DNA of 39,105 nucleotides, taken from contig JADGBV010000002.1 in assembly GCA_015231345.1 (NCBI GenBank), forward strand, positions 1 to 39,105, written 5' to 3'. Within the stretch, counting starts at the first letter, position 1, and every line of letters starts with the position of its first letter. Source of the DNA: Planctomycetota bacterium. GTDB lineage: Bacteria; Planctomycetota; JADGBV01. Below the pieces are notes generated by a model. The model did not search any database. It was not told where the DNA came from and worked only from the letters and a program-made list of their open reading frames with translations. This document shows, in pieces, positions 17,571-37,165 of the stretch. A program made the translations under genes and the position numbers.

Positions 17571-19805
17571 TTACAATCCAGTTTCCTTAAACTCAACTGC
17601 ATCAATATTAAAACCAGCACCATTAACGACTTCCAGTCTCAATATTTTATTGTTTCCACCTTCTACTGTTACATTTGGAAAAGTCACAATCCCTTGTTTC
17701 CCCCAGTTTCCTTGGTGAGTCAGTCCATCAATCACGGCAAGAACTTCACCGTCGAGGCTGACTTGTAAGGCCCCAGGGGTAGAAACGGCACAAAAATATA
17801 AGAAGTCAATATCATATATGCCTGCAGTGACGTTAACCGTATATTCTAACCACTCACCTTTCTTTAGATAGCCAACATTATAACCATTGCTTCCTTTATT
17901 CTTTTTTGTCACATCAACCATATCCTCAGGGCGAAAAGCACCATCTCCGCTCCTTTTATTATCGTCATTAAAAGCGAAGTCTTGACCTCCCTCATCATAA
18001 TGCTCACCTTCAATGAGGCCAGGAATGGTCATAGCGTTACCGCCAAATGGAGTTTGTTCAGGAGCAGGAGGAACACTTTTATGAATATCAAGCCCATAGA
18101 GCTCCACTGGTCCAATAACTGAAGCCAAAGAGATATCAAGCTGTCCGTCAGTTACACTGGTCGAAAAAGTTTCAATAAGTTCTGTGTCTTTGCCTGCTTT
18201 TGCATAAATATCAAAATTGCTACCAACCTGAACTCCTTCAACATCTATGTTGAATACACGTTCACCTACGTTATTATATTTGGTTTCAGCAAAATATAGA
18301 TTCACATCATAATCTCCATTCACTACAGGAACATGATAATCAAAAGCCGTTTTCCTGCGACAGGTACTATACAACTCCATGCCAGTAGTGCCTTCAATAA
18401 TTATTTTATTGCTTCGAGCATCTCCTCCTGCATAAAACCTATCAGGGGAAAACTCCATGCCCGTATCGGATGTAATGGCAGAACCACCACAATTTGCCTT
18501 AAACTTTTCTAGCTTGCTACTCGCTTTAATCTCATCAAGAGCATTTTTTAGTAATTCATAAGAGGCTAATTCGTCTGCAGCTAAGGACTCAATAGCAAGA
18601 GGACTTTTCTCTTTTGGATCGTTAATGATATCGTAAAAATTCCCTGTAATGTAGAGCTTATGCCTTTTATTTCGAGTATGCTGTTTTGCATTGGCATAAT
18701 TGGCAAATTTAGAATACCAGCAATAAATAAAATCCTTTGGATTGCCAATTTCTCCTTTAAGCTGAGGAAGAAAACTGACTCCCTCAATTTCAAGATCAGT
18801 AGGAATAGAAGCATTAGCGACTTCGCAAATGGTTGGCAAAACATCACTAAAGTCAATAAGGTCAAAACATTCGCTGTCTGGCATCACCATTCCATCCCAA
18901 CGAGAAATAAAAGGAACATGAGTCCCATTGTCTTTGGTTTTAGCTTTGCCGCCTTGGTAGGAAGCACCACGAAATTGAGAGGTGATTCCTTCAGATGTTC
19001 CATTATCGCCAGTGAAAATAATAATTGTATTTTCAGCAAGACCAAGTTCTTCTACTTTGGCCACAACTTTTCCTACCATTTTATCCATATAGGCAATCAT
19101 ATCAGCAAAATAGACTTTTTCGCCTTTGCCAAGCTCCCCCTGATAAGTTGGATCCCATTCTTCTGAATCAGGGGTTGGAGTCCATGGAGTATGAGGGAGC
19201 AACATGGGGTAATAGGCAAAAAAAGGAACATCTTTATTCTCTTCGATGAAGTCACAAATAAAGTCACTCACTACATCTGGTCCGTATTCGCCATCATTAA
19301 ACTTATTCACAACTCCATTGTATTCAAGAGTAGGGTTGGAGTACCTAGTGTCGTGTCCATCATTATATGTTGCTCCTAGGGATTGTTGCCATAAGCATGA
19401 CTGTTCAAAACCAAAATGTTGAGCAGAATCACTATCGCTTCCTAATTGCCATTTTCCAGCAATGGCAGTTTTATATCCAGCATTTTTAAAAAGGGTTCCA
19501 AAGCTCACCTGACTTCTGTCAAGATTTCCAAATTTATAGTAATTTGTAGCATTAGATTTGCCAGTCATAATTTTTACACGAGAGGGCGTGCAGACGGGCT
19601 GGGCATGAACATGCTCAAAACGCATTCCATGCGAGGCAAGTTGATTAATATGAGGGGTTTGATAAGATGTGCCGCCGTAAGTTTCAATACATTCATAGCC
19701 TAGATCATCAGCCATAATAAGAACGACATTAGGTCTTTCAGCTGCTAACAAAGGCTGCAGTAAATACAGTAAAGGCAGAAGTGGACTAAGGTATTTTAAA
19801 ATCAT
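17571..19805 (-). CDS. Exported S1 sulfatase (type A) + malectin domain + C-terminal CBM6
   Basis: PNVVLIMADDLG, CTPSR, GKWQLG; malectin NCGG...LYFAE...GERVFNI; CBM6 IPGLIEGEHYDEGG...GEWLEYTV. Confidence 0.92.
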   Translation of the reverse strand: MILKYLSPLLPLLYLLQPLLAAERPNVVLIMADDLGYECIETYGGTSYQTPHINQLASHGMRFEHVHAQPVCTPSRVKIMTGKSNATNYYKFGNLDRSQVSFGTLFKNAGYKTAIAGKWQLGSDSDSAQHFGFEQSCLWQQSLGATYNDGHDTRYSNPTLEYNGVVNKFNDGEYGPDVVSDFICDFIEENKDVPFFAYYPMLLPHTPWTPTPDSEEWDPTYQGELGKGEKVYFADMIAYMDKMVGKVVAKVEELGLAENTIIIFTGDNGTSEGITSQFRGASYQGGKAKTKDNGTHVPFISRWDGMVMPDSECFDLIDFSDVLPTICEVANASIPTDLEIEGVSFLPQLKGEIGNPKDFIYCWYSKFANYANAKQHTRNKRHKLYITGNFYDIINDPKEKSPLAIESLAADELASYELLKNALDEIKASSKLEKFKANCGGSAITSDTGMEFSPDRFYAGGDARSNKIIIEGTTGMELYSTCRRKTAFDYHVPVVNGDYDVNLYFAETKYNNVGERVFNIDVEGVQVGSNFDIYAKAGKDTELIETFSTSVTDGQLDISLASVIGPVELYGLDIHKSVPPAPEQTPFGGNAMTIPGLIEGEHYDEGGQDFAFNDDNKRSGDGAFRPEDMVDVTKKNKGSNGYNVGYLKKGEWLEYTVNVTAGIYDIDFLYFCAVSTPGALQVSLDGEVLAVIDGLTHQGNWGKQGIVTFPNVTVEGGNNKILRLEVVNGAGFNIDAVEFKETGL

Positions 19806-19887
19806 TATAATTCCTTTCTTAAAAGAGTTTAAAAAATGATAATAATTAATGAATATACCTTTAAAATAACCCGAAAAATTTCAAAAA

Positions 19888-19911
19888 CAATATGGTCGTT
19901 TGTCCATAATT
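19888..19911. promoter_or_regulatory. Palindromic operator, copy 1
   Basis: CAATATGG-TCGTTTGT-CCATAATT, 83 nt from the 19805 start codon. Confidence 0.8.
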
Positions 19912-19922
19912 TCAGATATAAT

Positions 19923-21383
19923 TTACCTAACTAAAGCTTTTTCAGTTTCAATGGGATCTTCATCCCCCAATTCTGCCAAACGTTTCTTTAATTGAGCCTT
20001 CATTTTTTGAACCACACCTGCATATTCTGGGTTAAGAATTTCATTCTTGAGCTCATAGGGGTCGTTCTCGCGGTTATAGAATTCAAATTCAGGTCGGTGA
20101 TGTAGCTTATGAACCAAGTCTTTTGCATTATCGCTCGTGTTGGCTAATTTTACCCATGACGACCCTATATCATTTCTTGAAGAATCCTCTCCACTAAGTC
20201 TTTTTAGGGCCAATGAGAGAGTTAAGTTAGAAGTGATTCTTTTATAGTTAGGGTTATAGATTAAAGAGAAAGACTTATCGCGAATCACTCGTATAGGGAA
20301 TATGCGCTCATTATTATGAATAATATTGCAGTTAGTGAAAGCTCCGTAGACATACTGATGGACATCCTCAGACTTTCCTTCTAATAACTTCATAAAACTC
20401 TTACCATCACAGTCCCCTTCTGATAGTTTTCCCCCTGCTATCTCAACTAGAGTTGGAGTGATATCTGCAATGGAAATAAGTTCATCAATTTTGGACCCTG
20501 GCTGAATAAGCTCAGGGCAATGTGCCACCAAACCAGTGTGTAGGCCGTTATCATAACAGGTCCATTTAGCAAAGGGAAGTTGAGTTCCCTGTTCACTACA
20601 TACGATAAAAATCGTTTTACGCCAAAGCCCGCGACTTTCAAGCTCGATTCGAACCCTGCCTACCAATGTGTCAAAATTGGAAATTTCGGCGTAGTACCTT
20701 CTCATATTTTCACGTAAGATGGGAGTGTCTAGCCAGTAAGGTGGCACCTCAAGTTTTGAGGCGTCATACATAGAGGAATCCCCAGTTGTAAAAGGTGCGT
20801 GTGAATCATGAGAGGCGATAAAAAGGCAAAAAGGAGAATTGTCTTCAGCACAAGAATCCATGAAATTATTCGCAGCATTCATAAACTCATCATTTTCACC
20901 GTTATTATATTTTGTGGTTCTTTCAGTTTTATTCTTATTAGCTTTGAAACGTTCAAAGGGATATGCTTGTTTTGGCCCAATATGTCCTTTGCCAATTAAA
21001 GCTGTACGGTAACCCAAAGGTTTAAGGTAGTGAGCGATACTTTTAGTATCAGGAGTCGAAGAAGAATGGTTAGCTAGGGTGGTTGTACGCCAAGGAGTTC
21101 TTCCGGAATACAGTTCTTGTCGAAAAGGTGCACACATGGCCACTGTGCAATAGGCATTCTTAAAAATGACTCCTTGGTGAGCAAGTTTGTCTATATTGGG
21201 AGTTTTACAGTCCTTGCCTCCGTAAGCCCCCCAGGTATCACGGCTCATATCATCAGCCAACAGAAATACAATATTGGGCTTCTCTGCGCCATACACGGGG
21301 GCAAGCAAAATAAGGCCGAGAATAAAAATAAATAATCTAAATAACATCATAAATGATACGCTAAAAAATAAGATGATTGTCAT
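19923..21383 (-). CDS. Exported S1 sulfatase (type B, N-sulfoglucosamine sulfohydrolase-like); start probably 21383 or 21350, not 21440
   Basis: PNIVFLLADD, MCAPFRQELYSGR, GKGHIG, PPYWLDTP; signal peptide. The ORF-track start at 21440 lies inside the operator. Confidence 0.9.
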   Translation of the reverse strand: MTIILFFSVSFMMLFRLFIFILGLILLAPVYGAEKPNIVFLLADDMSRDTWGAYGGKDCKTPNIDKLAHQGVIFKNAYCTVAMCAPFRQELYSGRTPWRTTTLANHSSSTPDTKSIAHYLKPLGYRTALIGKGHIGPKQAYPFERFKANKNKTERTTKYNNGENDEFMNAANNFMDSCAEDNSPFCLFIASHDSHAPFTTGDSSMYDASKLEVPPYWLDTPILRENMRRYYAEISNFDTLVGRVRIELESRGLWRKTIFIVCSEQGTQLPFAKWTCYDNGLHTGLVAHCPELIQPGSKIDELISIADITPTLVEIAGGKLSEGDCDGKSFMKLLEGKSEDVHQYVYGAFTNCNIIHNNERIFPIRVIRDKSFSLIYNPNYKRITSNLTLSLALKRLSGEDSSRNDIGSSWVKLANTSDNAKDLVHKLHHRPEFEFYNRENDPYELKNEILNPEYAGVVQKMKAQLKKRLAELGDEDPIETEKALVR

Positions 21384-21437
21384 GATAATATAATCCTGAA
21401 AATCATACATACAGGCTATTGTAAAAATACATGTAAT

Positions 21438-21461
21438 CAATATGGTCGTTTAGCCATATTG
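21438..21461. promoter_or_regulatory. Palindromic operator, copy 2
   Basis: CAATATGG-TCGTTTAG-CCATATTG, perfect 8-bp arms. Confidence 0.85.
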
Positions 21462-21463
21462 CA

Positions 21464-21491
21464 GGTTCACTGGGAGTATTCCCAATGAACC
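21464..21491. terminator. Intergenic hairpin
   Basis: GGTTCACTGGGA-GTAT-TCCCAATGAACC; 12-bp stem with one G-U pair on the minus-strand RNA. Confidence 0.5.
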
Positions 21492-21497
21492 ATAATG

Positions 21498-21551
21498 ACT
21501 GCCACCCAAGTCTACAAAGCGAATAAGGCCTGTAATTTACTGGGTGACAGT
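21498..21551 (-). terminator. Long 3' hairpin, copy 1
   Basis: ACTGCCACCCA...TGGGTGACAGT outer stem, 24 nt downstream of the 1631-aa gene. Confidence 0.55.
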
Positions 21552-21575
21552 AATCGATAATTTAGAAGGAATCCA

Positions 21576-23123
21576 TCAATAGATGACTTCAAACTTGTTC
21601 AAGTTCCACCCTCCACCTGTAGCTTCAATACGCAAGGTATATTCACCGGCAGGCAGGTCGATATAGTGACTCACTGTGCCCCAGGTCTGCCAACCGCCGG
21701 TTGGAGGCCCATCAATACTACCAAGTACAGTTGTGCCAGACATCAGGTTTAATTGAATATTCTGTTGATTAGCGGCATATCGGTAGTCGATACGGTACTG
21801 ACCAGCAAGATCTACGCGAATGGAGTATTCCATCCAGTCACCGGGATCTATCCAACCGATATTTTTTCCTCCGCCTTCATCCTTACAGTTGTTGTTGATT
21901 CCTATTCCGTTCATGGCATTGTAGTTTTCTGCTTCGAATAAGGAAGGAGTCATCGGTGGAGGAGGAATATTGCTGTTATCTTCAACGATTTCAAACCAGT
22001 TGAAATTCCAGCCTCCAGCGTTTGCCTCTATGCGTAAAGTCAGTTCGCCGGCAGGCAGTTGTACATAGTGACTTACCGTATCCCAGGTTTGCCAGCCACC
22101 TGTTGGAGGACCGTCAATACTCCCCAGGACTGTTGAGCCTGACATCAGGTTTAATTGAATATTATTTTGATTGGCAGCATATCGGTAATCGATACGGTAT
22201 TCTCTAGCAACATCAACTCGAACTGAATATTCCATCCAATCTCCATTGCTTATCCAGCCAACATTTTGTCCGCCGTCAATATCCTGACAGTTGCTGGTGA
22301 GAATCCCGTTCATGGCATCATAATTTTCTGCCTCAATTTTAGCAGGAACTGCTCGTGGTGCTTCAGATATTTCAAGCCAGTTCAGGTTCCAGCCACCACC
22401 CGTAGCCTCGATACGCAAAGTATATTCACCAGCTGGCAAGCTAACATAGTGACTTGCCGTATCCCAGGTTTGCCAACCACCGGTTGGGGTGCTGTCAACA
22501 CTGCCGAGCAAGGTCGTTCCGGACAATAGATTCAGCTGTATATTATTTTGCTTGGCAGCGTATCGGTAGTCAATGCGATAATCGCCAGCAAGGTCAACTC
22601 GGATAGAATACTCCATCCAATCGCCAGCACCAATCCAACCAACATTTTGTCCGCCGCCAATGTCTTGGCAGTTATTGGTAAGAATGCCGCTCATTGTATC
22701 AAAATCCTCCGCTTCAATTTTAGCAGGAACTAGAGGAGCCGCTGCATTTTCATTAACAAATTCAAGCCAATTGAAGTTCCAATTAGCTCCGGTGGCCTCG
22801 ATGCGAAGAGTGTGATCGCCAGCTGGTAAGTCAACATAATGACTCACGGTTTGCCAGGACTGCTTACCACCAGTTGCAGGGCTATCAATACTGCCTAGGA
22901 TGGAAGCCCCCAATTTCAAGTCAAACAAGATATTCTCTTCTAGAGAAGCCACTCTATAGTCAACACGGTACTGAGTAGGAATATCAACACGAATAACGTA
23001 TTCAAGCCAATCGCCGGCATCAATCTTATCAACATTTTTCCCGCCATTAGCATCCATGCATCTTTTATTGATGCCCATTCCACTCATTCCTAGGTAATCT
23101 TCCGCTTCAATTTTAGCAGGGAC
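21576..23123 (-). repeat. Intragenic tandem CBM6-coding repeats (4 units, about 381-393 bp)
   Basis: VPAKIEAE units start at 23123, 22730 and 22349, with a final PSLFEAE unit; recurring near-identical DNA such as GCATATCGGTA[AG]TCGATACG. Confidence 0.9.
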
Positions 23124-26100
23124 AGGAATGGGGTCGTAGGTGCATTCTACAGAGTAGATACTCTCCTCGCCGTTCAAATCAACTGCTGTAACCGCAAAAA
23201 AGTAACTATTGTTTATCAGGTCAAGTTCACTGATTGTGCTGCTTGTAACTCCAGCTGGCACCATGACCTTATTCTGATATTGGTATTGCTGAGGAAAAAA
23301 TTGAATATCTCGTGACTCCGTACCCCAGTAGACATAATAATGAGAGAGGTCTGTATCGTCTACCTCATCCCAGCTGACTGTGTTGGTGTCAGACTCAAAG
23401 ATTGGATTCTCTGGCTGAACGATGACAAAACACCTCTCTAGACTATTATTGCTAATATCAAGAGTAAGCACATCTATATCGTTCTGAAGCTCTGTCACAA
23501 TGGCTTGATTGTTTCCGGCTACATCATTCTCTTCGCTAATGTCTGTCGCCAAATCATAAAGTTCGAAAGTGTCACCATTTAGGTTCAGCTTCCATTTCTT
23601 ATTGTCAATATTCTTCCTAACCCCAGCAATTTTGGTGTTATTAGGTTTAACGTAGAAGAAACTTCTATCTGTCGATTCTAATGAAGGATTTTGCAAAAAT
23701 GGCAATAAGTTAATGCCGTCAATAACTCTGTCTTGCGGCAGCTCTATTTCATTTATGGCAGCAAAGGTGGGCAGTAAATCAATGGTGGATGTGATTTCAT
23801 CGGACACTGAACCAGCTGGTATCATATTCGGCCATTGCATGACACACGGCACCCTCTGTCCGCCTTCCCATGTTGAGAATTTCCCATCTCGTAGGGGGAA
23901 TGCTTTTCCGGCACTATCACCCTTGGAGAGCCATGGACCGTTATCGGAAGTAAAAACTACGAGCGTATTGTCCTCCAGTCCATTTTCTCTAAGAGTCCGT
24001 AACACTTCTCCCACACCCCAATCAATTTCCGTAATAATATCACCATAACGGTAATTCTTGGAACTGTACCGATCGGATGTGTTCTTGAACTCGTCCCTGC
24101 AATAAAGAGGGATATGAGGCATGGAGTGAGCTAAATAGAGAAAGAATGGTTTCCCTTCTTGTTTGCTTTGCTCAATAAAAGCCTGAGCTTCATTTGTATA
24201 CTTTTGTGTAAGATAGACCTGATCTACCGGCTGCTCAATAACTTCCGTATTACGGAATAGAGGAGTGCTTTTTCCGTTAAGTACATAGCCTCCCATGTCA
24301 TTGCTATATGGGACTCCATAGTAATAATCAAAGCCATTGTTTGTTGGTAGAAATTTGGGATGATCACCTAAATGCCATTTACCAATAGCAGCAGTATTAT
24401 AGCCTTTCGTTTTGAGCATATCTGCAACGGTGACTTCCTCTGGGGCGAAACCTTTGGCTGACTGAGGAAAAATAACGTTGGTTAAGCTCGACCTGGCAGG
24501 GTAACGACCGGTCAGCAGTGCTGCCCTTGAAGGTGTGCACACACTCGAGGCTACATAAAATTCGGATAATTTTACACCCTTATCTGCGATAGAATCAATA
24601 TTGGGTGTTTCAATTTTTTCATAACCCTGCTCGTCATTTGGGGTCCAAAAACATCCGACATCGTCATAGCCTTGGTCATCAGTAAAAATAACAACAATAT
24701 TAGGCTCAGCGGGTGGCTCAGGGGGATGACTAATGTTAATAGCAAAAAGTTCAACGGTATCCACAACCGCTGTAAAGGATATTTCAAGTTTGTTGTCCGT
24801 TACAGTTGTCGAAAATGTTTCAATACACTCTGTTTCTTTGGGTACTTTTGCCAAGATATCATAATTTGTCGCTACAGAAAGGCCTTCGATGTCGATATTA
24901 AAAACTCGATCGCCAATATTGTTATGTTTTGTCTCGGCAAAGAATAACTCTACATTATACTCACCGTTTGCCATGGGAATGAAATAACTAAGATCAGATC
25001 CCTTTCGGCTTCCAGTATACAATTCTGCATTAGCAGTACCGGCAATTGTTTTACTATTTGTCGGTGTATTTCCGCCATCGTAAAACCTGTCAGGGGCAAA
25101 TGTAATGCCACTATCAGACTCAACAACAGAACCACCACAGTTAATAGAGAATTGTTCGACTTGGCTTTCAAGAATTATATCGTTGAGAGCATCATTTAAC
25201 ATGGTGTATGAGGCTTGTTCTGCGAGATCTAGAGAATTGATATCAAGAGGTGTTTTTTCATTTGGGTCAGCAACAACATCATAAAAATTACCCGTTATAT
25301 ATAGCCTGTGTGTTTTGTTTCTAGTATACTGTTTGGCACTGTCGTATACGGCAAATTTAGAATACCAGCCATAAATCCAATCCTTTGGCGTGCCCTCTTC
25401 CCCTTTTAACTGAGGAAGGAAACTGATGCCATCAATTTCAACATCAGTAGATAGTGGGACATCACCAGCTTCACAAATCGTTGGTAAAATATCGCCAAAG
25501 TCAATCAGATCAAAACACTCGCTGTCTGGATTGATCACACCATCCCAACGAGCTACAAAAGGAACGTGCGTTCCTCTATCTTTTGTAAATGACTTACCGC
25601 CTTGATAAGGCTGACCTCTATATTGGGAGGTGATTCCCAGTGCGGTCCCATTATCACCAGTAAAGATGATTAATGTATTTTCCCCTAAGCCTAGTTCTTC
25701 TACTTTGGCAACGACTTTACCAACCATCTTATCCATATAGGCCACCATATCTTCAAAGTAGATCTTATCACCACCTGCTTGAACAATTTCATTAACCTGG
25801 CCCCACTCCTCAGAATCCGGTGTCGGAACAAAAGGGCTGTGGGGAAGCATCATAGGGTAGTAAGCAAAAAAGGGTACATCCTGATTTTCTTCAATAAAAT
25901 CACAAATATAGTCATTGACGATATCTGGGCCGTACTCACCACTCGTGTAATCAACGAGACCTGCATCATGATATTGCAGGAGGGGATTAGGGTACCTGTT
26001 GTCTTGGCCACCATATGTTGCTCCACGGGACTGTTGCCATAAGCAAGATTGATCAAAGCCGAAATGCTGAGGAGAGTCTTCTTCGGATCCCAGTTGCCAC

Positions 26101-26471
26101 TTCCCAGCAATCGCTGTTTTATAGCCGGCATTTTTGAAAAGTGTTCCAAAACTGACCTGACTTCTTTCAAGCGATCCGAATTTATAGTAATTTTTACGGT
26201 TAGAAATACCGGTCATGATTTTAACACGAGATGGCGTGCAAATCGGTTGAGCGTAGCAGTTCTCAAAGCGCATTCCTTGAGTCGCAAGAGTATCGATATA
26301 TGGGGTCTGGTAGGACTCTCCGCCATACTTTGTAATGCATTCTATGCCCAGATCATCGGCCATAATCAATATGACGTTTGGCTTTGATGTATTGGCAAAC
26401 GATACATGAGATTGGATTGTTATGAGTGCGCAGAGCATCCATACTATTGGTTTGAAATGATGAATTATCAT
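21576..26471 (-). CDS. Multidomain bi-sulfatase: S1 type A + malectin + S1 type C + FN3-like + 4x CBM6
   Basis: Two complete sulfatase signatures (MADDLG...ICTPSR; FTDDQG...VCTPSRAALLTGR); malectin LFFAE...GDRVFNI; FN3-like VSWD...YYVYWG...YFFAVTAVD; four [IF]EAE[DN][YF]...GDW[LM]EY...WQ[TS]W...NW/NK repeats. Confidence 0.93.
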   Translation of the reverse strand: MIIHHFKPIVWMLCALITIQSHVSFANTSKPNVILIMADDLGIECITKYGGESYQTPYIDTLATQGMRFENCYAQPICTPSRVKIMTGISNRKNYYKFGSLERSQVSFGTLFKNAGYKTAIAGKWQLGSEEDSPQHFGFDQSCLWQQSRGATYGGQDNRYPNPLLQYHDAGLVDYTSGEYGPDIVNDYICDFIEENQDVPFFAYYPMMLPHSPFVPTPDSEEWGQVNEIVQAGGDKIYFEDMVAYMDKMVGKVVAKVEELGLGENTLIIFTGDNGTALGITSQYRGQPYQGGKSFTKDRGTHVPFVARWDGVINPDSECFDLIDFGDILPTICEAGDVPLSTDVEIDGISFLPQLKGEEGTPKDWIYGWYSKFAVYDSAKQYTRNKTHRLYITGNFYDVVADPNEKTPLDINSLDLAEQASYTMLNDALNDIILESQVEQFSINCGGSVVESDSGITFAPDRFYDGGNTPTNSKTIAGTANAELYTGSRKGSDLSYFIPMANGEYNVELFFAETKHNNIGDRVFNIDIEGLSVATNYDILAKVPKETECIETFSTTVTDNKLEISFTAVVDTVELFAINISHPPEPPAEPNIVVIFTDDQGYDDVGCFWTPNDEQGYEKIETPNIDSIADKGVKLSEFYVASSVCTPSRAALLTGRYPARSSLTNVIFPQSAKGFAPEEVTVADMLKTKGYNTAAIGKWHLGDHPKFLPTNNGFDYYYGVPYSNDMGGYVLNGKSTPLFRNTEVIEQPVDQVYLTQKYTNEAQAFIEQSKQEGKPFFLYLAHSMPHIPLYCRDEFKNTSDRYSSKNYRYGDIITEIDWGVGEVLRTLRENGLEDNTLVVFTSDNGPWLSKGDSAGKAFPLRDGKFSTWEGGQRVPCVMQWPNMIPAGSVSDEITSTIDLLPTFAAINEIELPQDRVIDGINLLPFLQNPSLESTDRSFFYVKPNNTKIAGVRKNIDNKKWKLNLNGDTFELYDLATDISEENDVAGNNQAIVTELQNDIDVLTLDISNNSLERCFVIVQPENPIFESDTNTVSWDEVDDTDLSHYYVYWGTESRDIQFFPQQYQYQNKVMVPAGVTSSTISELDLINNSYFFAVTAVDLNGEESIYSVECTYDPIPVPAKIEAEDYLGMSGMGINKRCMDANGGKNVDKIDAGDWLEYVIRVDIPTQYRVDYRVASLEENILFDLKLGASILGSIDSPATGGKQSWQTVSHYVDLPAGDHTLRIEATGANWNFNWLEFVNENAAAPLVPAKIEAEDFDTMSGILTNNCQDIGGGQNVGWIGAGDWMEYSIRVDLAGDYRIDYRYAAKQNNIQLNLLSGTTLLGSVDSTPTGGWQTWDTASHYVSLPAGEYTLRIEATGGGWNLNWLEISEAPRAVPAKIEAENYDAMNGILTSNCQDIDGGQNVGWISNGDWMEYSVRVDVAREYRIDYRYAANQNNIQLNLMSGSTVLGSIDGPPTGGWQTWDTVSHYVQLPAGELTLRIEANAGGWNFNWFEIVEDNSNIPPPPMTPSLFEAENYNAMNGIGINNNCKDEGGGKNIGWIDPGDWMEYSIRVDLAGQYRIDYRYAANQQNIQLNLMSGTTVLGSIDGPPTGGWQTWGTVSHYIDLPAGEYTLRIEATGGGWNLNKFEVIY

Positions 26472-26546
26472 TTAACTATTCTCCTTAAAAGATTCCATAA
26501 GAACTAAAAATAAGTTGAAGTCTTTTTAACGGGAGACAAACATGCG

Positions 26547-26570
26547 CAATATGGTCGTTTAGCCAAACTA
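26547..26570. promoter_or_regulatory. Palindromic operator, copy 3
   Basis: CAATATGG-TCGTTTAG-CCAAACTA, 76 nt from the 26471 start; first 19 nt identical to copy 2. Confidence 0.75.
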
Positions 26571-26678
26571 TGATTGTGAGGACTAATCTAATAGATACCT
26601 TGTTTTGAGTCAAGAGATGTCTATGTTTATTTTATGCTTTGATCAGCAGGCTCAATGCTTGGATAAACTGTAGCCTCC

Positions 26679-26741
26679 AAAAAAAATGCCACCCAAGGAT
26701 AGCCAGATCCGAACACGGCATCTGCTATTTGGGTGACAGTA
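26679..26741 (-). terminator. Long 3' hairpin, copy 2, with U-tract (rho-independent terminator)
   Basis: Minus strand TACTGTCACCCAAATAGCAGATGCCGTGTTCGGATCTGGCTATCCTTGGGTGGCATTTTTTTT. Confidence 0.7.
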
Positions 26742-26752
26742 TTTACTATATT

Positions 26753-26796
26753 GCCTTTTTGAAAGTTAAGCTGGGGAAGCTACCTTTCAAAAAGGC
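26753..26796. terminator. Intergenic hairpin
   Basis: GCCTTTTTGAAAG...CTTTCAAAAAGGC, perfect 13-bp arms just after the 1042-aa gene stop. Confidence 0.55.
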
Positions 26797-26823
26797 TAAT
26801 TCTTGTGACTTTGCTGAGCTAAC

Positions 26824-27978
26824 TCAATAGATCACTTTAAACCAGTTCAAGTTCCACCCTGCTCCAAGTGCTTCTATGCGCAAGGTGTGTTCGCCGGCTG
26901 GTAAGTCGATATATTGACTCACCGTATTCCATGTCTGCCAGCCACCGGTTGGAAGAGCGTCAATAGTGCCTAGAACTGTAGTGCCTGATATGAGATTAAA
27001 TTGCGCATTTTGACTATTCGCAGCATATCGGTAATCGATACGATATTCTCCGGCAACATCTACTACAATGTCGTATTCCATCCAGTCACCGGCATTGACC
27101 CAGCCAATATTCTTCCCACCGTCAATATCCTTGCAATTGTTATTGATTCCCACTCCGCTCATTGCCTTGTAATCTTCTGCTTCAAACAGAGAAGGAGTTA
27201 TTGGTGGCGGAGGTGTATTGCTGTCATCCTCGACGATTTCAAACCAGTTCAGATTCCAGCCCCCACCTACGACCTCAATGTGCAAGCTTATCTCACCAGC
27301 GGGCAAGGTTACAAAATGACTAGCCGTATCCCATATTTGCCAGCCACCGGTTGGGGCGGCGTCAATATTTCCAATAACTGTCGTTCCATACATCAGGTTA
27401 AGTCGCATATTATTTTTGTTAGCAGCATATCGGTAGTCGATACGAAACTCTCCTGCATGTTTGACTCGAATATTGTATTTCATCCAATCACCGGTATTTA
27501 TCGAACTAACCTTTTGCCCGCCGTCAATATCATCAGCTCCACTGATGATAACACCGCTCATTGTGTCGTAATTTTCGGCTTCAATTTTAGCTGGAACGGC
27601 CTCTGCGACCTCAACTACTTTAAACCAGTTTAGGTTCCAGCCTCCACCGTTTGCCTCTATGCGCAAGGTAGATTCTCCTGCAGGCAAAGCTACATAGTGA
27701 CTTGCCGTATTCCAGATTTGCCAACCACCGGTTGGGGCGGCGTCAAGACTTCCGAGTACCGTTGACCCTGATATGAGGTCCAGTTTTATGTTCTTTTGGT
27801 TAGCAGCATATCGGTAGTCGATGCGATACTCCTTAGCATAATTCACTTTAATGGTATATTCCATCCAGTCTCCGGCATCTACCCAGCCGATATTTTCTCC
27901 ACCATCAATGTCCTTACAACTGCTGGTTAGAATGCCGCTCATTGCTTCATAATTCTCAGCTTCAACAGTAAAAGGGAA
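26824..27978 (-). repeat. 3x CBM6-coding cassette, colinear with 21576-22730
   Basis: Both cassettes are 1155 bp with an internal unit start at the same offset (773 bp from the stop end), the same Pro-rich linker and a VIY* ending. Confidence 0.85.
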
Positions 27979-29952
27979 AGAAATTTTCTCTTCTATCGTG
28001 ATGCTTACTGTAGCTAGTTCAGAGTCCAGTTCGCCGTCATTCACCATAAAAGAGAACTCATCGCTGCCGGAATAGTCTGCATTTGGAGTGTATGTTAATG
28101 TTGGTGGATCCCCAGAGAGAACTCCATGAGCTGGAGTGGAAACAAGGATGTAAGTCATTTTGTTGCTGTCAACGTCACTGCTGGTTAACTCAATGATTTC
28201 CGGAGAGCTCCCTAAGATTGATATATTTTGTTCTTCAGCAACAGGAGCGTCGTTAACGCTTTTTACTTTGATGCTCACGGGAGCTACGTATAACATATCA
28301 CCATTACTATCTTTTGCTTCATATTCAAAAGAATCTTCACCAACGAAATTGTTATAGGGAGTGTAAGTCAAGTTGGGAGCCTCCCCTGATAAATTGCCCG
28401 ATGAAGGTTGTGACAATACTGTAAAAGTCCACCCTGTGCTATCGACAAGTTCATTTTCATTATCGAGCATGCCAAGAGTAATGCTTTTTGCAATATCTTC
28501 CTTGAGTTTAACGCGAACTTCTCCTGTTTCTCGACTGCGAATTGCCATCTCTGTTGCGATGGGATCTGAATCATTCAATTCAGCTAAGCGAACGAAAAGT
28601 TGTTGTTTTAATTCATTCACAGTGTCTGCATACAAAGGATTATCTATCTCATTTGTAAGTTCATATGGGTCATTTTCCAGGTCGTAAAGTTCAAACTCCG
28701 GTCGGTGGTGAAGTTTGTAAACTAAAGCCTCTTCTCTCTCAGTTTTAACAGGTAATATGGCCCATGAAGCTGCAGTATTAGGATTCTTAGGGATTTTGCC
28801 ATCATCAAGATAGTTAAGGGCGCCCCCAATGATTTGATTTGATGTACGCTCTGTATAATTAGCGTTGTAAATGAGAGAAAATGATTTATTACGAATAACA
28901 CGGATAGGGAAAACTCTGTTATCGTTTCCCGAAATATTACAGTTAGTAAAGGCTCCATACACATAATCATTAATGACTTGCTCCTCTCCCTTCATCATAT
29001 TCAGGAAGCTTTTTCCGTCACAGTCAATGGTTTCTACTGATCCGCCTGCAGCCTCAACTAATGTAGGTGTAATGTCAGTGATAGCAACTAGTTCATCTGA
29101 AACAGTCCCTGGTTGTGTTACACCAGACCAGTGAGCGATCAAACCGCTACGCAAACCATTCTCATAACAGGTCCATTTGGCGAAAGGAAGAGCTGTTCCT
29201 TGCTCTCCACAAACCATGAAAATTGTGTTTTCCCAAAGGTTTCGATTTTCTAGTTCAGCTCGAACTCGTCCAACCAACTCATCGAAGTTAGTGATTTCGG
29301 CGTAGTAATTGACCATTTCTGCACGGGTTTCTGGTGTGTCTACCCAGTAAGGAGGAACAATTAATTCCTCAGCATTATAAGCCGAAGGATCACCATCTTT
29401 GTATGGAAGGTGTGCATCATGAGATCCAATAAATAGACAGAATGGCTTTTCTTCGCCTTCAGCGGTGCATGAATCAAAAAGCTGAGAGGCTGCATCTAAA
29501 AATTTATCATTATCATCTGAAAGCTCACTACTTCCACTAATTTTTGTGAAGGGGTAAGAATCAGATGGGCCTACGTGACTTTTTCCTGTCAAAGCGACTT
29601 CATATCCCAAATCTTGGAGATAGTGAGCGATACTTTTGGTTCCTTCCGCAGAGTGGGAGTGATTGGATAACGTTCCGGTACGCCATGGTGTGCGTCCGCT
29701 GTAGAGTTCCTGTCTGTAAGGTGCACACATGGCAGTTGTGCAATATGCACGATCAAATTTCAGGCCATCATCTGCAAGTCTATCGATATTAGGCGTTTTG
29801 CAGTTAACGCCTCCATATGCTCCCCAGGTATCGCGGTTAATGTCGTCGCCAAGAACAAATACAATATTTGGTTGATACGCTGCTACAGTGGATGGTGCAC
29901 CTATAACAGCTCCCAGCATAAATAAAAATTTTACAAAACACTTAACATTCAT
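26824..29952 (-). CDS. Exported S1 sulfatase (type B) + two Ig-like/cadherin-like repeats + 3x CBM6
   Basis: PNIVFVLGDD, MCAPYRQELYSGR; LTYTP...G[ES]D[SE]F repeats and VNDAPVA; three CBM6 units. Confidence 0.92.
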   Translation of the reverse strand: MNVKCFVKFLFMLGAVIGAPSTVAAYQPNIVFVLGDDINRDTWGAYGGVNCKTPNIDRLADDGLKFDRAYCTTAMCAPYRQELYSGRTPWRTGTLSNHSHSAEGTKSIAHYLQDLGYEVALTGKSHVGPSDSYPFTKISGSSELSDDNDKFLDAASQLFDSCTAEGEEKPFCLFIGSHDAHLPYKDGDPSAYNAEELIVPPYWVDTPETRAEMVNYYAEITNFDELVGRVRAELENRNLWENTIFMVCGEQGTALPFAKWTCYENGLRSGLIAHWSGVTQPGTVSDELVAITDITPTLVEAAGGSVETIDCDGKSFLNMMKGEEQVINDYVYGAFTNCNISGNDNRVFPIRVIRNKSFSLIYNANYTERTSNQIIGGALNYLDDGKIPKNPNTAASWAILPVKTEREEALVYKLHHRPEFELYDLENDPYELTNEIDNPLYADTVNELKQQLFVRLAELNDSDPIATEMAIRSRETGEVRVKLKEDIAKSITLGMLDNENELVDSTGWTFTVLSQPSSGNLSGEAPNLTYTPYNNFVGEDSFEYEAKDSNGDMLYVAPVSIKVKSVNDAPVAEEQNISILGSSPEIIELTSSDVDSNKMTYILVSTPAHGVLSGDPPTLTYTPNADYSGSDEFSFMVNDGELDSELATVSITIEEKISFPFTVEAENYEAMSGILTSSCKDIDGGENIGWVDAGDWMEYTIKVNYAKEYRIDYRYAANQKNIKLDLISGSTVLGSLDAAPTGGWQIWNTASHYVALPAGESTLRIEANGGGWNLNWFKVVEVAEAVPAKIEAENYDTMSGVIISGADDIDGGQKVSSINTGDWMKYNIRVKHAGEFRIDYRYAANKNNMRLNLMYGTTVIGNIDAAPTGGWQIWDTASHFVTLPAGEISLHIEVVGGGWNLNWFEIVEDDSNTPPPPITPSLFEAEDYKAMSGVGINNNCKDIDGGKNIGWVNAGDWMEYDIVVDVAGEYRIDYRYAANSQNAQFNLISGTTVLGTIDALPTGGWQTWNTVSQYIDLPAGEHTLRIEALGAGWNLNWFKVIY

Positions 29953-30007
29953 AATACTTTTCCTCCATAATATAAAAATATTATACTAGAGGTCATTGGA
30001 GACTTTT

Positions 30008-30031
30008 CAATATGGCTATTCAGCCATATAG
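30008..30031. promoter_or_regulatory. Palindromic operator, copy 4
   Basis: CAATATGG-CTATTCAG-CCATATAG, 56 nt from the 29952 start. Confidence 0.8.
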
Positions 30032-30119
30032 TTATCCGTTTAACTACCTTTAATGCGGATTACTATCTTGTTTGATGCTGTGTCTGCTATTCTGCCAACC
30101 ACAGCATTCTATTAGCCGG

Positions 30120-31538
30120 TTATTTTTTATATGTGTTATGGAAATCTTCAAGGACTTCAGCCTCGTGCTCTTCCATTTTTTTGCTTAAGTGCATTGCGAT
30201 TTCCTTTTTCTCTTCAATCAGATTACGGCTTTCGGAAATATCGCTTTCTAGGTTATGCAGTTCACTTATATCTTTATGGGTTCTGAGTTTCCATTTGCCG
30301 TAGCGGACAGCTTCCACCTTTTTGCCTCTCCAGTAGTACAAGTATTCGTGGGGAGTCTTGGCTCCATTCTTGCCAGCCATCAGGTCGAAAATATTTTTGC
30401 CATCTATGGTGCGATCAACAGGGACCGTACAGTCAGCAAGAGTTGCTATGGTTGGTAGTAAATCCATAGTTGAACTGATTTCGCTACAAACTTTACCGGC
30501 TGGGATTTGGCCTGGCCAACGCATGAGACAGGGTACACGTTGTCCACCTTCCAAGGTATTGAACTTGTATCCTCTTAATGGTTTGGCGCACCCGCCTTTT
30601 TTGCCTAGATTCCAAGGGCCATTGTCGGAAGTGTAAATAAGTAGGGTGTTTTCGTCGAGTTGATTTTCTTTGAGGGCTTTCATTAAACGGCCTACGTTGA
30701 AATCGATTTCTTCGACCGTATCACCGTAAGGTCCCTGTTCACTTTTGCCTCTGAATTTCTCAGTGGCATAAAGGGGAATGTGAGGCATGGTGTGGGCCAG
30801 ATAGAGGAAGAAGGGTTTATTCTTATTGTTTTCGATAAAGCGTATGGCTTCATCGGTGTAGCGTTTGGTGAGAGTGCTTTGATCTGCTGGAAATTCGATG
30901 ACTTCTTCATTCCTCATAAGGGGTGAGCGACGCTTGTTTTCACCCTTGTTTGGGTAGTAAATGCCCTGATTGATTTTTTCTATGCTTGCTCCATCTCTAA
31001 GATTAACATCTTTGGAGAGGGTTGGGTTTTTAAAGAGGCTCATGTCATTGCTGTAGGGGATACCGAAATAACTATCGAAGCCATGTTGTGTGGGTAGGTA
31101 TTCTTTCTTATGGCCGATGTGCCACTTACCGACACATGCGGTGGCATATCCTTTTTGCTTAAGTAATTCTGCTATGGTGATTTCATTTTGGGGAAGCCCA
31201 TTCGTGCTTGTAGGAAAGAGAACGCCGGTAATACTGGTTCTTTGGGGGTATCGTCCGGTGAGTAGGGAGGCTCGTGAGGGAGAGCAGACCGAATTGGCCG
31301 AATAAAAATCGGTAAAGCGAGTGCCTTCTTTTGCAATTTTATCGAGATTGGGTGTCTTAATATTAGGAGAACCAAAAGAGCCTAAATCTTGGTAGCCTTG
31401 GTCATCAGTAAAAATAATAATGACATTGGGTTGGTCTGCTTTTGCTGTGCCAATTTGCGCGAAGCTGATGCCAGCAAGTAGAATGAGAAAGGCGGATTGT
31501 AGCTTGCTGCAGATGAATTTTAGCTTGTTTTTAGGCAT
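30120..31538 (-). CDS. Exported S1 sulfatase (type C, arylsulfatase-A-like); start moved to 31538
   Basis: GGGAG RBS before MPKNK; PNVIIIFTDDQG, VCSPSRASLLTGR, GKWHIG, GIPYSNDM, SDNGPW. Confidence 0.92.
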   Translation of the reverse strand: MPKNKLKFICSKLQSAFLILLAGISFAQIGTAKADQPNVIIIFTDDQGYQDLGSFGSPNIKTPNLDKIAKEGTRFTDFYSANSVCSPSRASLLTGRYPQRTSITGVLFPTSTNGLPQNEITIAELLKQKGYATACVGKWHIGHKKEYLPTQHGFDSYFGIPYSNDMSLFKNPTLSKDVNLRDGASIEKINQGIYYPNKGENKRRSPLMRNEEVIEFPADQSTLTKRYTDEAIRFIENNKNKPFFLYLAHTMPHIPLYATEKFRGKSEQGPYGDTVEEIDFNVGRLMKALKENQLDENTLLIYTSDNGPWNLGKKGGCAKPLRGYKFNTLEGGQRVPCLMRWPGQIPAGKVCSEISSTMDLLPTIATLADCTVPVDRTIDGKNIFDLMAGKNGAKTPHEYLYYWRGKKVEAVRYGKWKLRTHKDISELHNLESDISESRNLIEEKKEIAMHLSKKMEEHEAEVLEDFHNTYKK

Positions 31539-31720
31539 TTTGGGGCTCCCAGTATGATATAAATTTACTGTCTTATACGCTGTTTCTAGAGATTCTGGAC
31601 AAAAAAAACTGAACATGAGAAATTTACCTCTCTTTTCAGTTTGCTTGCATTTTTTGGCATTTAAGAGTTTTGCTGCGTTATTGACCTATTCCTGGTAGGA
31701 AAGGACTTAGATCGCCATGA

Positions 31721-33151
31721 TTACTTCTTTACTTTCCTTCCTTGCGGACGGTTTGGATTTAATAATTCAAGTGCCTTCTTTAAGCGATTGGCAATTTCAG
31801 GGTATTTGTCTATGATATTCTTGCTCTCACCAATATCTTCTTTCAAGTTATAGAGAGATGGACTATTTGTGTCTCTTTGAGTCTTCTTTGTTACAAATTT
31901 CTCTACTTTATGATATTTCCAATCACCACTTCGAACAGCCCTTTGGCCATAGAAGAAATATTTATGAGGAGAAACAGCATCTTTGACTCCCATGAGTAAA
32001 TCCAAGATATTCTGTCCATCTAGTGCCATTTCTGGTAAATTTGCACCTGCAATTTGAGCAATAGTTGGATACAAATCCATGGAAGTTGCTATTTCATTGC
32101 AAATACTTCCTGCGGGAATCTTATTGGGCCATCGAACGATGGCGGGGACTCGTTGTCCTCCTTCAAAATTTGTCATTTTTCCTTCAAACAAAGGAAGTGC
32201 ACTTCCACCATTTTTGCCTTTAATCAACCAGGGGCCATTATCAGAGCTAAATATGACGATGGTGTCATCTGCTATTCCAAGCTCATCTAGGTGATCCAGA
32301 ATACGGCCGACATTGTAGTCTATTTCTTCTATGACATCGCCGTACAAACCACGTTGGCTTTTGCCCTTGAAATCTGGAGATGCAAAGAGAGGAGTGTGGG
32401 GCATGGAGTTAGCCAAGTAGAGAAAAAATGGATTTTTCTCTTTTACAGACTCAGAGATAAAAGTAATACTTTCGGAGGCAAATCTTTTAGTGATGGTTGA
32501 CTGGTCTGCAGGAAACTCGATCACTTCTTGGTTTTGCATCAGAGGGACCTTGTTATTAAAATTCTTAAGAGCTTTCTTGTCAGTTTTCAGAGCAGCAAAG
32601 GCTTTTTGCAATATTTCCTCCGACATGCCTTCACGCCATAGACAATCCTCTGCATATTTCGAAATGCGCGAGGGAGACATATCATTACTATAGGGGATAC
32701 CATAATATGAATCAAAACCTTGATTGGTTGGTAAAAATTTCACATCATCACCCAAATGCCATTTTCCTACAGCTTTAGTCTTATAGCCCACTGTTTTGAG
32801 AGTTTCGGCGATGGTCACATGCGCAGGGTTTAAGCCATTATTGCCCTTATTTGGAAAGAAAACGCCACCTACACCTACTCGTTGAGGGTAACACCCAGTG
32901 AGAAGAGCAGCCCGGGAAGGAGAGCATACGGAAGAGGCAACGTAGAAATCTGTAAATTTCATTCCCTCTTTGGCCATTTGATCCACTCGAGGTGTTTTGA
33001 TATCGGGAGAACCATAACATCCCAAGTCCTGATAGCCTTGGTCATCATTAAAAATAATGATGACGTTCGGCTGAATATCCCCATATGCTAATAATGAAGA
33101 CAGGCATAAAATAAGAATTGTTATCTGCTTGATGCTCTTTGATGTATGCAT
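31721..33151 (-). CDS. Exported S1 sulfatase (type C, arylsulfatase-A-like)
   Basis: PNVIIIFNDDQG, VCSPSRAALLTG, GKWHLG, GIPYSNDM, SDNGPW; signal peptide. Confidence 0.93.
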   Translation of the reverse strand: MHTSKSIKQITILILCLSSLLAYGDIQPNVIIIFNDDQGYQDLGCYGSPDIKTPRVDQMAKEGMKFTDFYVASSVCSPSRAALLTGCYPQRVGVGGVFFPNKGNNGLNPAHVTIAETLKTVGYKTKAVGKWHLGDDVKFLPTNQGFDSYYGIPYSNDMSPSRISKYAEDCLWREGMSEEILQKAFAALKTDKKALKNFNNKVPLMQNQEVIEFPADQSTITKRFASESITFISESVKEKNPFFLYLANSMPHTPLFASPDFKGKSQRGLYGDVIEEIDYNVGRILDHLDELGIADDTIVIFSSDNGPWLIKGKNGGSALPLFEGKMTNFEGGQRVPAIVRWPNKIPAGSICNEIATSMDLYPTIAQIAGANLPEMALDGQNILDLLMGVKDAVSPHKYFFYGQRAVRSGDWKYHKVEKFVTKKTQRDTNSPSLYNLKEDIGESKNIIDKYPEIANRLKKALELLNPNRPQGRKVKK

Positions 33152-33250
33152 GGGCTTTTTTATCCTATGATAAATACGGGGAAGGGGATTAGTCTAGAAA
33201 TGAACTCAACTTGTTTTGTCTTCATAGCTTATGTTGTATTTATCCATTAG

Positions 33251-33274
33251 CAATATGGTCAATTGGCCATATTG
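33251..33274. promoter_or_regulatory. Palindromic operator, copy 5 (between the sulfatase array and the two-component operon)
   Basis: CAATATGGTCAATTGGCCATATTG; 11 of 12 base pairs symmetric. Confidence 0.85.
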
Positions 33275-33428
33275 ATTTAAAGTGCATAATTTCATATATT
33301 AAAGCATGAGCAGAAGGATAATACTATAAGAAACAATCTCCCTGTCTCAAGAATTATATTTCGCTTTTTTTCATTTTTCATTATTATAATCTCATCTTTC
33401 TTATCCACAGCCCCTTCTTGATGGTGTT

Positions 33429-35390: not shown

Positions 35391-36035
35391 ATGAGTGATC
35401 TTATCCGTATCATCATCGTTGAGGACAATGCTGCATACGCCAAATCCTTGCAAGACATTATCGAGCTTACAGATACTCTGACGTATATCCAGCATTATAG
35501 CAAGGGCGAGGACTGCCTTAAAGATTTACAAAGTGAGCACCCTCCTCAAGCAGATATTATTTTATTAGATTTGCATCTTCCTGGAAATAATGGACTTACC
35601 TTTGTACCAAGTTTTCAGCGATACGCGCCAAACTCACGCATTCTTGTATTAACACAGAACGATGATTATCATACCACTTTGGAAGCTATACGCCTTGGCG
35701 TATCTGGATACATACTTAAAGATGCCAAGTTGGATGAAATAAGAACAGCGATTCGCGATGTTCACCAGGGAGGCTGTGTGCTTGATCCGCAATTATCCAG
35801 GTTTGTTCTGAAAACCCTCACAAGCATACCAACTGAAAAGGAGAATCCTTTAAGTAAGCGTGAGGTGGAAGTGCTGGAGCTTTTAGCAATGGGCTATGTC
35901 AAAAAGGAGGTCGCTTCACAACTCGACCTAAGTTATCGAGCTGTAGCTCTGTATACCGAAAATATCTATAAAAAACTCCAAGTGCCAAATGTCGCTGCAG
36001 CCATTGCAACTGCGATACGTAAAGGGTTAATTTGA
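35391..36035 (+). CDS. NarL/FixJ (LuxR-HTH) response regulator
   Basis: IIIVEDN, ILLDLHLPG, GYILK and LSKREVEVLELLAMG...IYKKLQV. Confidence 0.95.
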   Translation: MSDLIRIIIVEDNAAYAKSLQDIIELTDTLTYIQHYSKGEDCLKDLQSEHPPQADIILLDLHLPGNNGLTFVPSFQRYAPNSRILVLTQNDDYHTTLEAIRLGVSGYILKDAKLDEIRTAIRDVHQGGCVLDPQLSRFVLKTLTSIPTEKENPLSKREVEVLELLAMGYVKKEVASQLDLSYRAVALYTENIYKKLQVPNVAAAIATAIRKGLI

Positions 36036-37086: not shown

Positions 37087-37165
37087 GGTCGGTACTTGAA
37101 CGGACCTAATTTATGATTCTCGCTTTAACTTTTTTCCCGTGGCGTCAATACCTAAGGAAGGCACT

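Follow-up and report, generated by a model that had tools for sequence, protein, structure and literature searches.

The window considered here, a stretch of 39,105 nucleotides from a Planctomycetota bacterium (assembly GCA_015231345.1, contig JADGBV010000002.1, positions 1 to 39,105), carries six sulfatase genes on its minus strand and, divergent from the last of them, a gene for a sensor histidine kinase followed by a gene for a NarL-family response regulator. Ahead of each of the five predicted sulfatase transcription units lies a copy of a palindromic box, 24 bases in length, and it is the nature of this box and its relationship with the adjacent kinase-regulator pair that are addressed here. 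The box is very probably a protein-binding regulatory site. That the adjacent regulator is the protein that binds it can be proposed with good confidence, and the reading as a whole, in which the box would be the site of a dimer of this NarL-family regulator and would act as an activator box fused to the -35 element of the promoter behind it, appears likely.

The pattern CAATATGG-N8-CCATATTG, with up to three mismatches allowed, has exactly five matches in the window, at 19888 (2 mismatches), 21438 (0), 26547 (3), 30008 (1) and 33251 (0), whereas 100 shuffled windows returned a mean of 0.19 matches to the full pattern and a maximum of 2, with none reaching five. The arm CAATATGG alone occurs eight times against an expectation of 1.75, and seven of these eight occurrences belong to the five box sites. 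All five copies are intergenic, with the end of the box lying 82, 54, 75, 55 and 99 nt (in coordinate order) from the ATG of a minus-strand sulfatase gene, the second of these distances being taken to an in-frame ATG at 21383 within a gene call of 19923-21440. On the minus strand, Box A (19888..19911; matrix score 24.5) stands 5' of the sulfatase/malectin/CBM6 gene 17571-19805, Box B (21438..21461; 25.7) 5' of the sulfatase gene 19923-21383, Box C (26547..26570; 25.7), all of whose mismatches fall in the distal arm, 5' of the double-sulfatase/CBM6 gene 21576-26471, and Box D (30008..30031; 23.5) 5' of the sulfatase/Big_9/CBM6 gene 26824-29952. Box F (33251..33274), which is given no single strand and scores 29.3 and 29.9 on the two strands, occupies the divergent region between the sulfatase operon 31721-33151/30120-31616 and the kinase-regulator operon. 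The gene-proximal arm, which is the left arm on the plus strand, is identical in all five sites and the distal arm is variable; when the five upstream regions are aligned the box is the sole conserved part, the flanks being unrelated.

A position matrix was run over the whole assembly, which amounts to 4.14 Mb in 588 contigs and is rated 69% complete. The five window sites all score at least 23.5, the next-best site reaches 18.7, and the nine next-best candidates, when checked, all lie inside open reading frames (ORFs). The element is therefore real and far beyond chance, and no strong site lies outside this locus in as much of the genome as has been assembled. An earlier note on this DNA had described five palindromic copies, intergenic and some 55-100 nt ahead of sulfatase starts, with an invariant gene-proximal arm, a variable distal arm and unconserved flanks, a description that the pattern search and the upstream alignment bear out. 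Scatter of the motif regardless of gene starts, which that note named as refuting its reading, is not what the scan shows, the strong sites all standing before sulfatase genes of the locus. That the copy at 33251 is the most symmetric is correct once the spacer is counted, but on the arms alone the copy at 21438 is equally perfect.

What sort of factor would read such an element? Column counts over 18 sites place the conservation at positions 1-19 (CAAYAYGGYCAATYRACC, then A or G), with little beyond. In a larger set, of 34 sites, dyad behaviour of the mirror positions extends from about 4/21 to 12/13. Positions 6/19 are complementary in 33 of the 34 sites and exist in two states, T:A in 15 and C:G in 18, with a single exception; positions 8/17 are complementary in every site and positions 7/18 in 29. 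The arm pairs switch together, such that TATGG is partnered by CCATA and CACGG by CCGTG. Complementary change on both arms is what would be seen because a symmetric dimer imposes it, and the idea of one dimeric factor, put forward in the earlier note, is strengthened by this co-variation within a dyad core. Set upon the dyad is an asymmetry, in that positions 1-3 (CAA, or TTG in gene sense) are conserved on the gene side only and have no conserved mirror. The distal outer arm has been lost in many orthologues in which the box is still present, and the spacer is itself conserved, with an AATTGA-like sequence.

In gene sense the last letters of the box are TATTG, and a hexamer resembling a -10 element lies at a characteristic distance beyond it. 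A TAnnnT begins exactly 20 nt past the box in 7 of the 18 sites, four of which are in the window. In a complete 3.06-Mb chromosome labelled Coraliomargarita (G041, which holds the orthologous locus L026), a TAnnnT begins 20-23 nt past the box in 13 of 17 sites, set against a background of 0.018 per offset, and it often has a TG one base ahead of it, in the manner of extended -10 elements. When the terminal TTG is taken as the start of a -35 hexamer, the spacers come to 16-19 nt. The invariance of the gene-proximal arm is probably explained in this way, its last TTG doing duty as the -35 element. All five predicted sulfatase promoters of the window are on the minus strand. For promoter A the predicted -10 is TATTTT at 19863..19868, placed by the fixed offset of +20 and paired with a -35 of TTGTTT at 19890..19885. 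The hexamers after the box give predicted -10 elements of TAGCCT at 21413..21418 for promoter B and TAAGCT at 33226..33231 for promoter F, and for promoter D both a generic promoter scan and the box offset point to TAGTAT at 29983..29988. Promoter C, the weakest of the five, has a possible -10 of TAAAAA at 26523..26528, at an offset of +19. The generic scan reports TTGAAA-16-TAGTAT at 30010..29983, starting in Box D, and the other four sulfatase promoters of the window fall below its 9/12 threshold, keeping only the TTG of the -35 hexamer. On the plus strand it also reports TTGATT-17-TATATT at 33272..33300, which starts in the opposite arm of Box F and points at the kinase gene. As both arms of the copy at 33251 end in TTG, this site may also drive the kinase-regulator operon, and Box F is thus possibly bidirectional. 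With transcription starts placed from the -10-like hexamers, the centre of the box is predicted to lie near -44, touching the -35 of a weak promoter. This would be the layout of class II-like activators, which reach RNA polymerase from a site over the -35 and, as with the lux box, have that site centred about 41-45 nt upstream of the start.

A mechanism can be put together from these features. A dimer of the regulator encoded at 35391-36035, whose partner would be the kinase encoded at 33429-35381 with its large periplasmic sensor, would bind the box, the part recognised by the protein being a dyad of 14-18 bp with the ideal form TATGGTCAATTGACCATA. This dyad would run into the gene-side TTG, which would act as the -35 of a weak sigma-70-type promoter with a TAnnnT -10 element following after 16-19 nt, and the phosphorylated regulator would activate each sulfatase transcription unit separately from its site overlapping the -35, in the way of LuxR/TraR or NarL at promoters with a site so placed. 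We infer from the DNA sequence each of the principal elements of this scheme, namely binding by the regulator, activation over repression, the transcription starts and the signal.

The overlap with the predicted -35 is also the classic position of an operator and so tells against activation, since repressors bind there too. The same protein on the same box could then cover the -35 and block RNA polymerase, with a signal-dependent release inducing the sulfatases, and promoter D is on its own a fair sigma-70 match at 9/12. Repression of this kind is nevertheless unlikely, given that the poor generic scores of the other four promoters, with nothing but the TTG of the -35 kept, are typical of activator-dependent promoters, and that the strict phasing between box and -10, present in two independent data sets, is needed for contact with polymerase and not for simple occlusion. 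Two-component regulators of catabolic clusters usually activate. Where the earlier note speaks of an operator, the box has the look of an activator box joined to a -35 element more than of a repressor operator.

The connection between the box and the kinase-regulator pair comes from comparison with other genomes, in which the box accompanies this regulator in further marine bacteria that degrade sugars. Full-length homologues of the kinase, with 38-47% identity, occur in records labelled Luteolibacter, Akkermansiaceae, Coraliomargarita, Haloferula and Pontiella, and 77 loci around kinase homologues were compared. In many of them the kinase-regulator pair is divergent from sulfatase genes, and no other gene pair is shared by the loci that bear a box, whose remaining genes differ. 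The box is visible by eye before the kinase gene in locus after locus. As a safeguard against circularity, a matrix made from the five window sites only was scanned over the 77 loci. Of its 12 best distinct sites, two are inside ORFs and ten are intergenic in orthologue loci, where seven of the ten immediately precede the kinase gene and the other three stand ahead of small PEP-CTERM genes. A footprint test was restricted to the 450 nt before the kinase gene, with orthologues defined by at least 35% identity and a region-corrected p below 0.01. By this test 8 of the 18 orthologue loci pass in comparison with 0 of the 8 paralogue loci, and in all eight passing loci the arm that is invariant in the window is directed at the divergent gene and away from the kinase. 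Phylogenetic footprinting near orthologous regulators, one of the checks suggested in the earlier note, thus recovers the box, and the finding of it beside orthologous pairs with a window-only matrix favours that note's choice of the NarL/LuxR-type neighbour as the factor. Simpler searches were set aside: plain counts of ATGG-N8-CCAT over the 77 loci show no excess over other spacer lengths, such that a position matrix is needed, and exact ATATGG-N8-CCATAT yields only two stray matches in 40 relatives. In the one genome of the same family the kinase was not found with the query used.

The same assignment is favoured by the way in which variants of the box follow the recognition helix of the regulator. 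Boxes with an ATGG arm go with a helix of the form ..AVA(L/Q)YT.. (7 loci), those with an ACGG arm with ..RT(V/I)(A/S)Q.. (3 loci) and those with an ATAG arm with ..GSVA.. (2 loci). The residues that track the box align with the recognition helix of NarL, whose corresponding residues are in contact with bases. If true, this pairing of A/L with T:A, T/Q with C:G and G-S with ATAG would represent a readable specificity code. The paralogous pairs at L023, L024, L025 and L027 (30-33% identity) have regulators with a different recognition helix, ..HT(I/V).., and a different conserved upstream box that is ACCCACA..TGTG/GTAGGT-like, and each kinase-regulator subfamily may have its own box.

Could the box be bound instead by another transcription factor encoded elsewhere, its co-location with the pair being a by-product of shared gene clusters? 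Binding by the neighbouring regulator is, after all, a proposal, and in G041 the boxes reach to about 40 kb from the regulator gene, across a region with unannotated genes. Such a factor is very doubtful, since the box-bearing loci have no other gene pair in common, the box variants follow the recognition helix of this regulator, and the paralogous pairs have a different box upstream. It is more improbable still, to a degree that places it close to dismissal, that the box is no transcription-factor site at all, for although the palindrome is able to fold and the window contains a sigma-54 activator gene (13212-14189), a sigma-54 promoter has GG and GC elements 12 nt apart where the invariant GG and terminal TTG(C) of the sites are 17 nt apart, sigma factors in general, including those of the extracytoplasmic function (ECF) class, read asymmetric elements and here both arms co-vary, no RNA or DNA hairpin can form in the many orthologues in which the distal outer arm is lost and the box persists, nor does a loop require a conserved spacer, and a small mobile repeat, akin to repetitive extragenic palindromes or miniature inverted-repeat transposable elements, is at odds with unrelated flanks and with the lack of a further strong copy in 4.14 Mb.

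The reach of the regulon proposed for the NarL-family regulator was followed in whole genomes with a degenerate 19-letter pattern, counted by strand and with the reversed pattern as a control. In G041 all 14 strand-matches fall within a stretch, at 424-496 kb, that surrounds the kinase gene, compared with 0 for the reversed control; a matrix scan finds 17 sites within 72 kb around the pair. Twelve of the 17 lie 40-114 nt before a plus-strand ORF, distances to start codons that are approximate since gene calls in the genomes other than that of the window are simple ORF calls, and the remaining five are more distant from the next ORF, are located within a called ORF, or may face a gene on the minus strand. 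The target genes include two sulfatases, a GH29 (glycoside hydrolase family 29) fucosidase and an operon with a GH95 fucosidase. Four PEP-CTERM proteins are encoded behind sites as well, along with oxidoreductase and isomerase-like genes and three surface proteins that measure 1819-2712 aa. In relatives the regulon thus reaches past the sulfatases named in the earlier note, to fucosidases, other glycoside hydrolases and PEP-CTERM proteins. Three pairs of G041 promoters, 477138/483515, 433220/435610 and 461813/463357, are near-identical for at least 60 nt downstream, and some of the promoters there arose by duplication and do not count as independent data. Ten further orthologue-bearing genomes each have at least one match to the degenerate pattern and no control match, a result in which only the extra sites are new evidence, as most of those ten genomes contributed sites to the design of the pattern. 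The clearest case is G415, no site of which entered the design: its seven sites, spread over three contigs, stand before genes of sulfatase, melibiase-like and GH42-like type. Two matrix matches in G412, on contig C97, were rejected as coding repeats inside a 2123-aa ORF.

Besides the approximate start distances just mentioned, a number of observations weigh against the proposal of an activator box bound by the adjacent regulator. Before the kinase gene, 10 of the 18 orthologue loci miss the footprint threshold. Two of these loci, L012 and L026, have a variant box that is recognised by eye and scored poorly by the window matrix, and the sequence available upstream in L011 is just 102 nt long; no box is seen before the kinase gene in L007, L013, L016, L018 and L021, and the genome that holds L016 is without any match to the degenerate pattern. 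In the window itself, promoter C is without a TAnnnT at the expected place. The correlation between helix and box comes from few lineages and may reflect mere clades, so that it is supportive and not decisive. Among 400 sampled genomes of the phylum of the window there are 47 pattern matches in 43 genomes, compared with about 54 (a hand tally) for the reversed control, and none of the 47 has a kinase or regulator homologue within about 6 kb on either side. Matches equal in number to the control are best read as chance, so that the pattern alone is not diagnostic. As no kinase orthologue is present in these 400 genomes at an E-value of 1e-90 or better, the association test on the 47 matches is without power. 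The box is not a general feature of these genomes, and the signal comes from clusters of matches beside the regulator pair, one match by itself being without meaning.

How does this arrangement compare with known systems? One likeness of the box is with the lux-box and tra-box sites of LuxR and TraR, which are also dyads of 18-20 bp. Such a dyad is recognised by a dimer whose helix-turn-helix is of the GerE/LuxR type, each promoter has a single site and, as predicted here from a centre near -44, the site abuts or overlaps a weak -35. Lux and tra boxes overlap the -35 element at some promoters. The differences are that the sequence of the present box is unrelated and that the regulator is of the phosphorylation-controlled type, with a receiver domain and no N-terminal autoinducer-binding domain. 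In protein architecture the regulator is the same as NarL/NarP, DesR, VraR/LiaR and RcsB, which bind inverted repeats as dimers, as the box here is an inverted repeat, and the kinase has the matching HisKA_3/DesK-type core. The present system differs from these in having a periplasmic sensor of about 400 aa without a Pfam family of its own, and in its glycan-degrading targets. A NarL site consists of inverted TACYYMT heptamers 2 bp apart, and this 7-2-7 heptamer arrangement is absent from the 18-site column counts. With the regulators of Bacteroidota polysaccharide utilisation loci (hybrid two-component systems, SusR and ECF sigma/anti-sigma pairs) the system shares the principle that a local sensor switches on an adjacent glycan-degrading cluster. 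It is, however, a classical two-protein system and not a hybrid kinase with AraC output, it resides in a host of the PVC (Planctomycetota-Verrucomicrobiota-Chlamydiota) group, and it has one box for each transcription unit in place of one operon promoter.

A comparative regulon reconstruction of a similar kind is described for Bacteroides (PMC3878776). For Pontiella agarivorans, kinases with PF07730/PF02518 and regulators with PF00072 are placed near sulfatases and glycoside hydrolases (PMC10880615), and the passages of that paper that deal with such kinases and regulators describe no DNA motif, promoter or regulon. A term search of a paper on fucoidan breakdown in Planctomycetota (PMC11685898) gave no occurrence of 'histidine kinase', 'two-component', 'promoter', 'binding motif' or 'PEP-CTERM'. 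In the literature searched as full text, supplements aside, no description was found of the box or of the regulon of the sensor pair, nor of a regulator binding site for the glycan-degradation clusters of Verrucomicrobiota, Kiritimatiellia or Planctomycetota. A response-regulator box at activator-dependent promoters is a known kind of element, and it is this member, its host group and its reach that are new.

These three groups have a major part in the breakdown of sulfated algal glycans, fucoidan among them. A recognisable box tied to a specific sensor pair would make it possible to deduce regulons from genomes and metagenome bins, and would mark the sulfatases, glycosidases and unknown surface proteins that share a switch. 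It would also provide a direct experimental handle and a natural test case for the co-evolution of a recognition helix and its site. Kinase orthologues are found only in Verrucomicrobiota-type records, with 0 in the 400 sampled genomes of the window's phylum, and the window aspartokinase (7225-8535) has as its nearest named relatives records of Planctomycetes/Phycisphaeraceae, at 55-58% identity. Judged from this one housekeeping gene and the source labels, the sensor pair and box may have crossed phyla. That kinase, regulator and -35-fused box together constitute a portable switch for sulfated-glycan degradation in the PVC group, with one box per promoter, moved across phyla and with a helix-box code, is offered as a tentative proposal that in its full form we would regard as rather unlikely.

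The six sulfatase genes of the window (17571..33151, minus strand) match the Pfam Sulfatase family with E-values from 1e-37 to 1e-107 and form five predicted transcription units: 17571-19805, 19923-21383, 21576-26471, 26824-29952, and 30120-31616 with 31721-33151. Several of the proteins have extra Pfam domains (CBM6/CBM35, malectin and the Ig-like Big_9), and gene 21576-26471 encodes a protein of 1631 aa with two sulfatase domains. The sixth gene, 30120-31616, is without a box of its own; it lies 104 nt from the upstream gene 31721-33151, with which it is probably co-transcribed. The closest solved structures are of S1-family sulfatases, and the substrate is not inferable from these relatives.

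The kinase (33429..35381, plus strand; 650 aa) has HisKA_3 (2.2e-08) and HATPase_c (5.4e-10) matches in Pfam, and a profile search of solved structures, in which only the kinase core was matched, shows this core to be DesK-like. The periplasmic part of about 400 aa is bounded on each side by one hydrophobic, membrane-spanning stretch. It has a weak F5/8 type C match in 1 of 20 orthologues, a family that is present in more distant kinase homologues, and a protein atlas places it with discoidin-like clusters at a score of 0.85, taken as a lead only. A carbohydrate-binding role for the sensor is plausible. Four further kinases of like build, with 23-28% identity, are encoded in the same genome on contigs C416, C110, C575 and C144, and a quick search near these four paralogues found no repeated perfect palindromes. 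The regulator (35391..36035, plus strand; 214 aa), the proposed binder of the box, has Response_reg (6e-21) and GerE (7.9e-15) domains in Pfam. Its closest solved structure is NarL (1a04, E-value 3.7e-21), with DesR and VraR also matched, and in the regulator alignment the receiver residues D60 and K110, acidic and Lys residues respectively, are invariant.

Small PEP-CTERM proteins of about 200-290 aa, with no other Pfam family, recur among the orthologous loci (L010 8905-9765; L016 8584-9297; L026 2605-3273 and 4059-4808; L031 2822-3550), and in G041 they are encoded at 461940-462689, 463475-464143, 467195-467800 and 474028-474714. Most are directly behind a box, the one at L016 being without. 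These proteins might be surface glycan-binding components.

Two hairpins of about 50 nt with the same stem, TGTCACCCA..TGGGTGGCA, are present on the minus strand of the window, the first (21500..21549) after the stop codon of gene 21576-26471 and the second (26687..26738) after that of 26824-29952, with a T run behind it. They are the sole copies in the genome, and probably represent transcript ends. Standing as they do behind single genes, they fit separate transcription of each gene, and, together with the -10-like hexamer at a fixed distance after each box, they lend support to the suggestion of the earlier note that the genes are individually promoted.

The protein encoded at 13212-14189 (325 aa) has a sigma-54 interaction domain, with no receiver or DNA-binding domain detected by Pfam, and appears unrelated to the box. 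Downstream of the regulator gene, and without a box, lie 36271-37086, whose product has an N-terminal methylation motif of the prepilin type, and 37139-39103, encoding a CBM6 protein that extends past the edge of the window. At locus L015 a protein with such an N_methyl motif is encoded divergently beside the kinase gene, on the side faced by the box.

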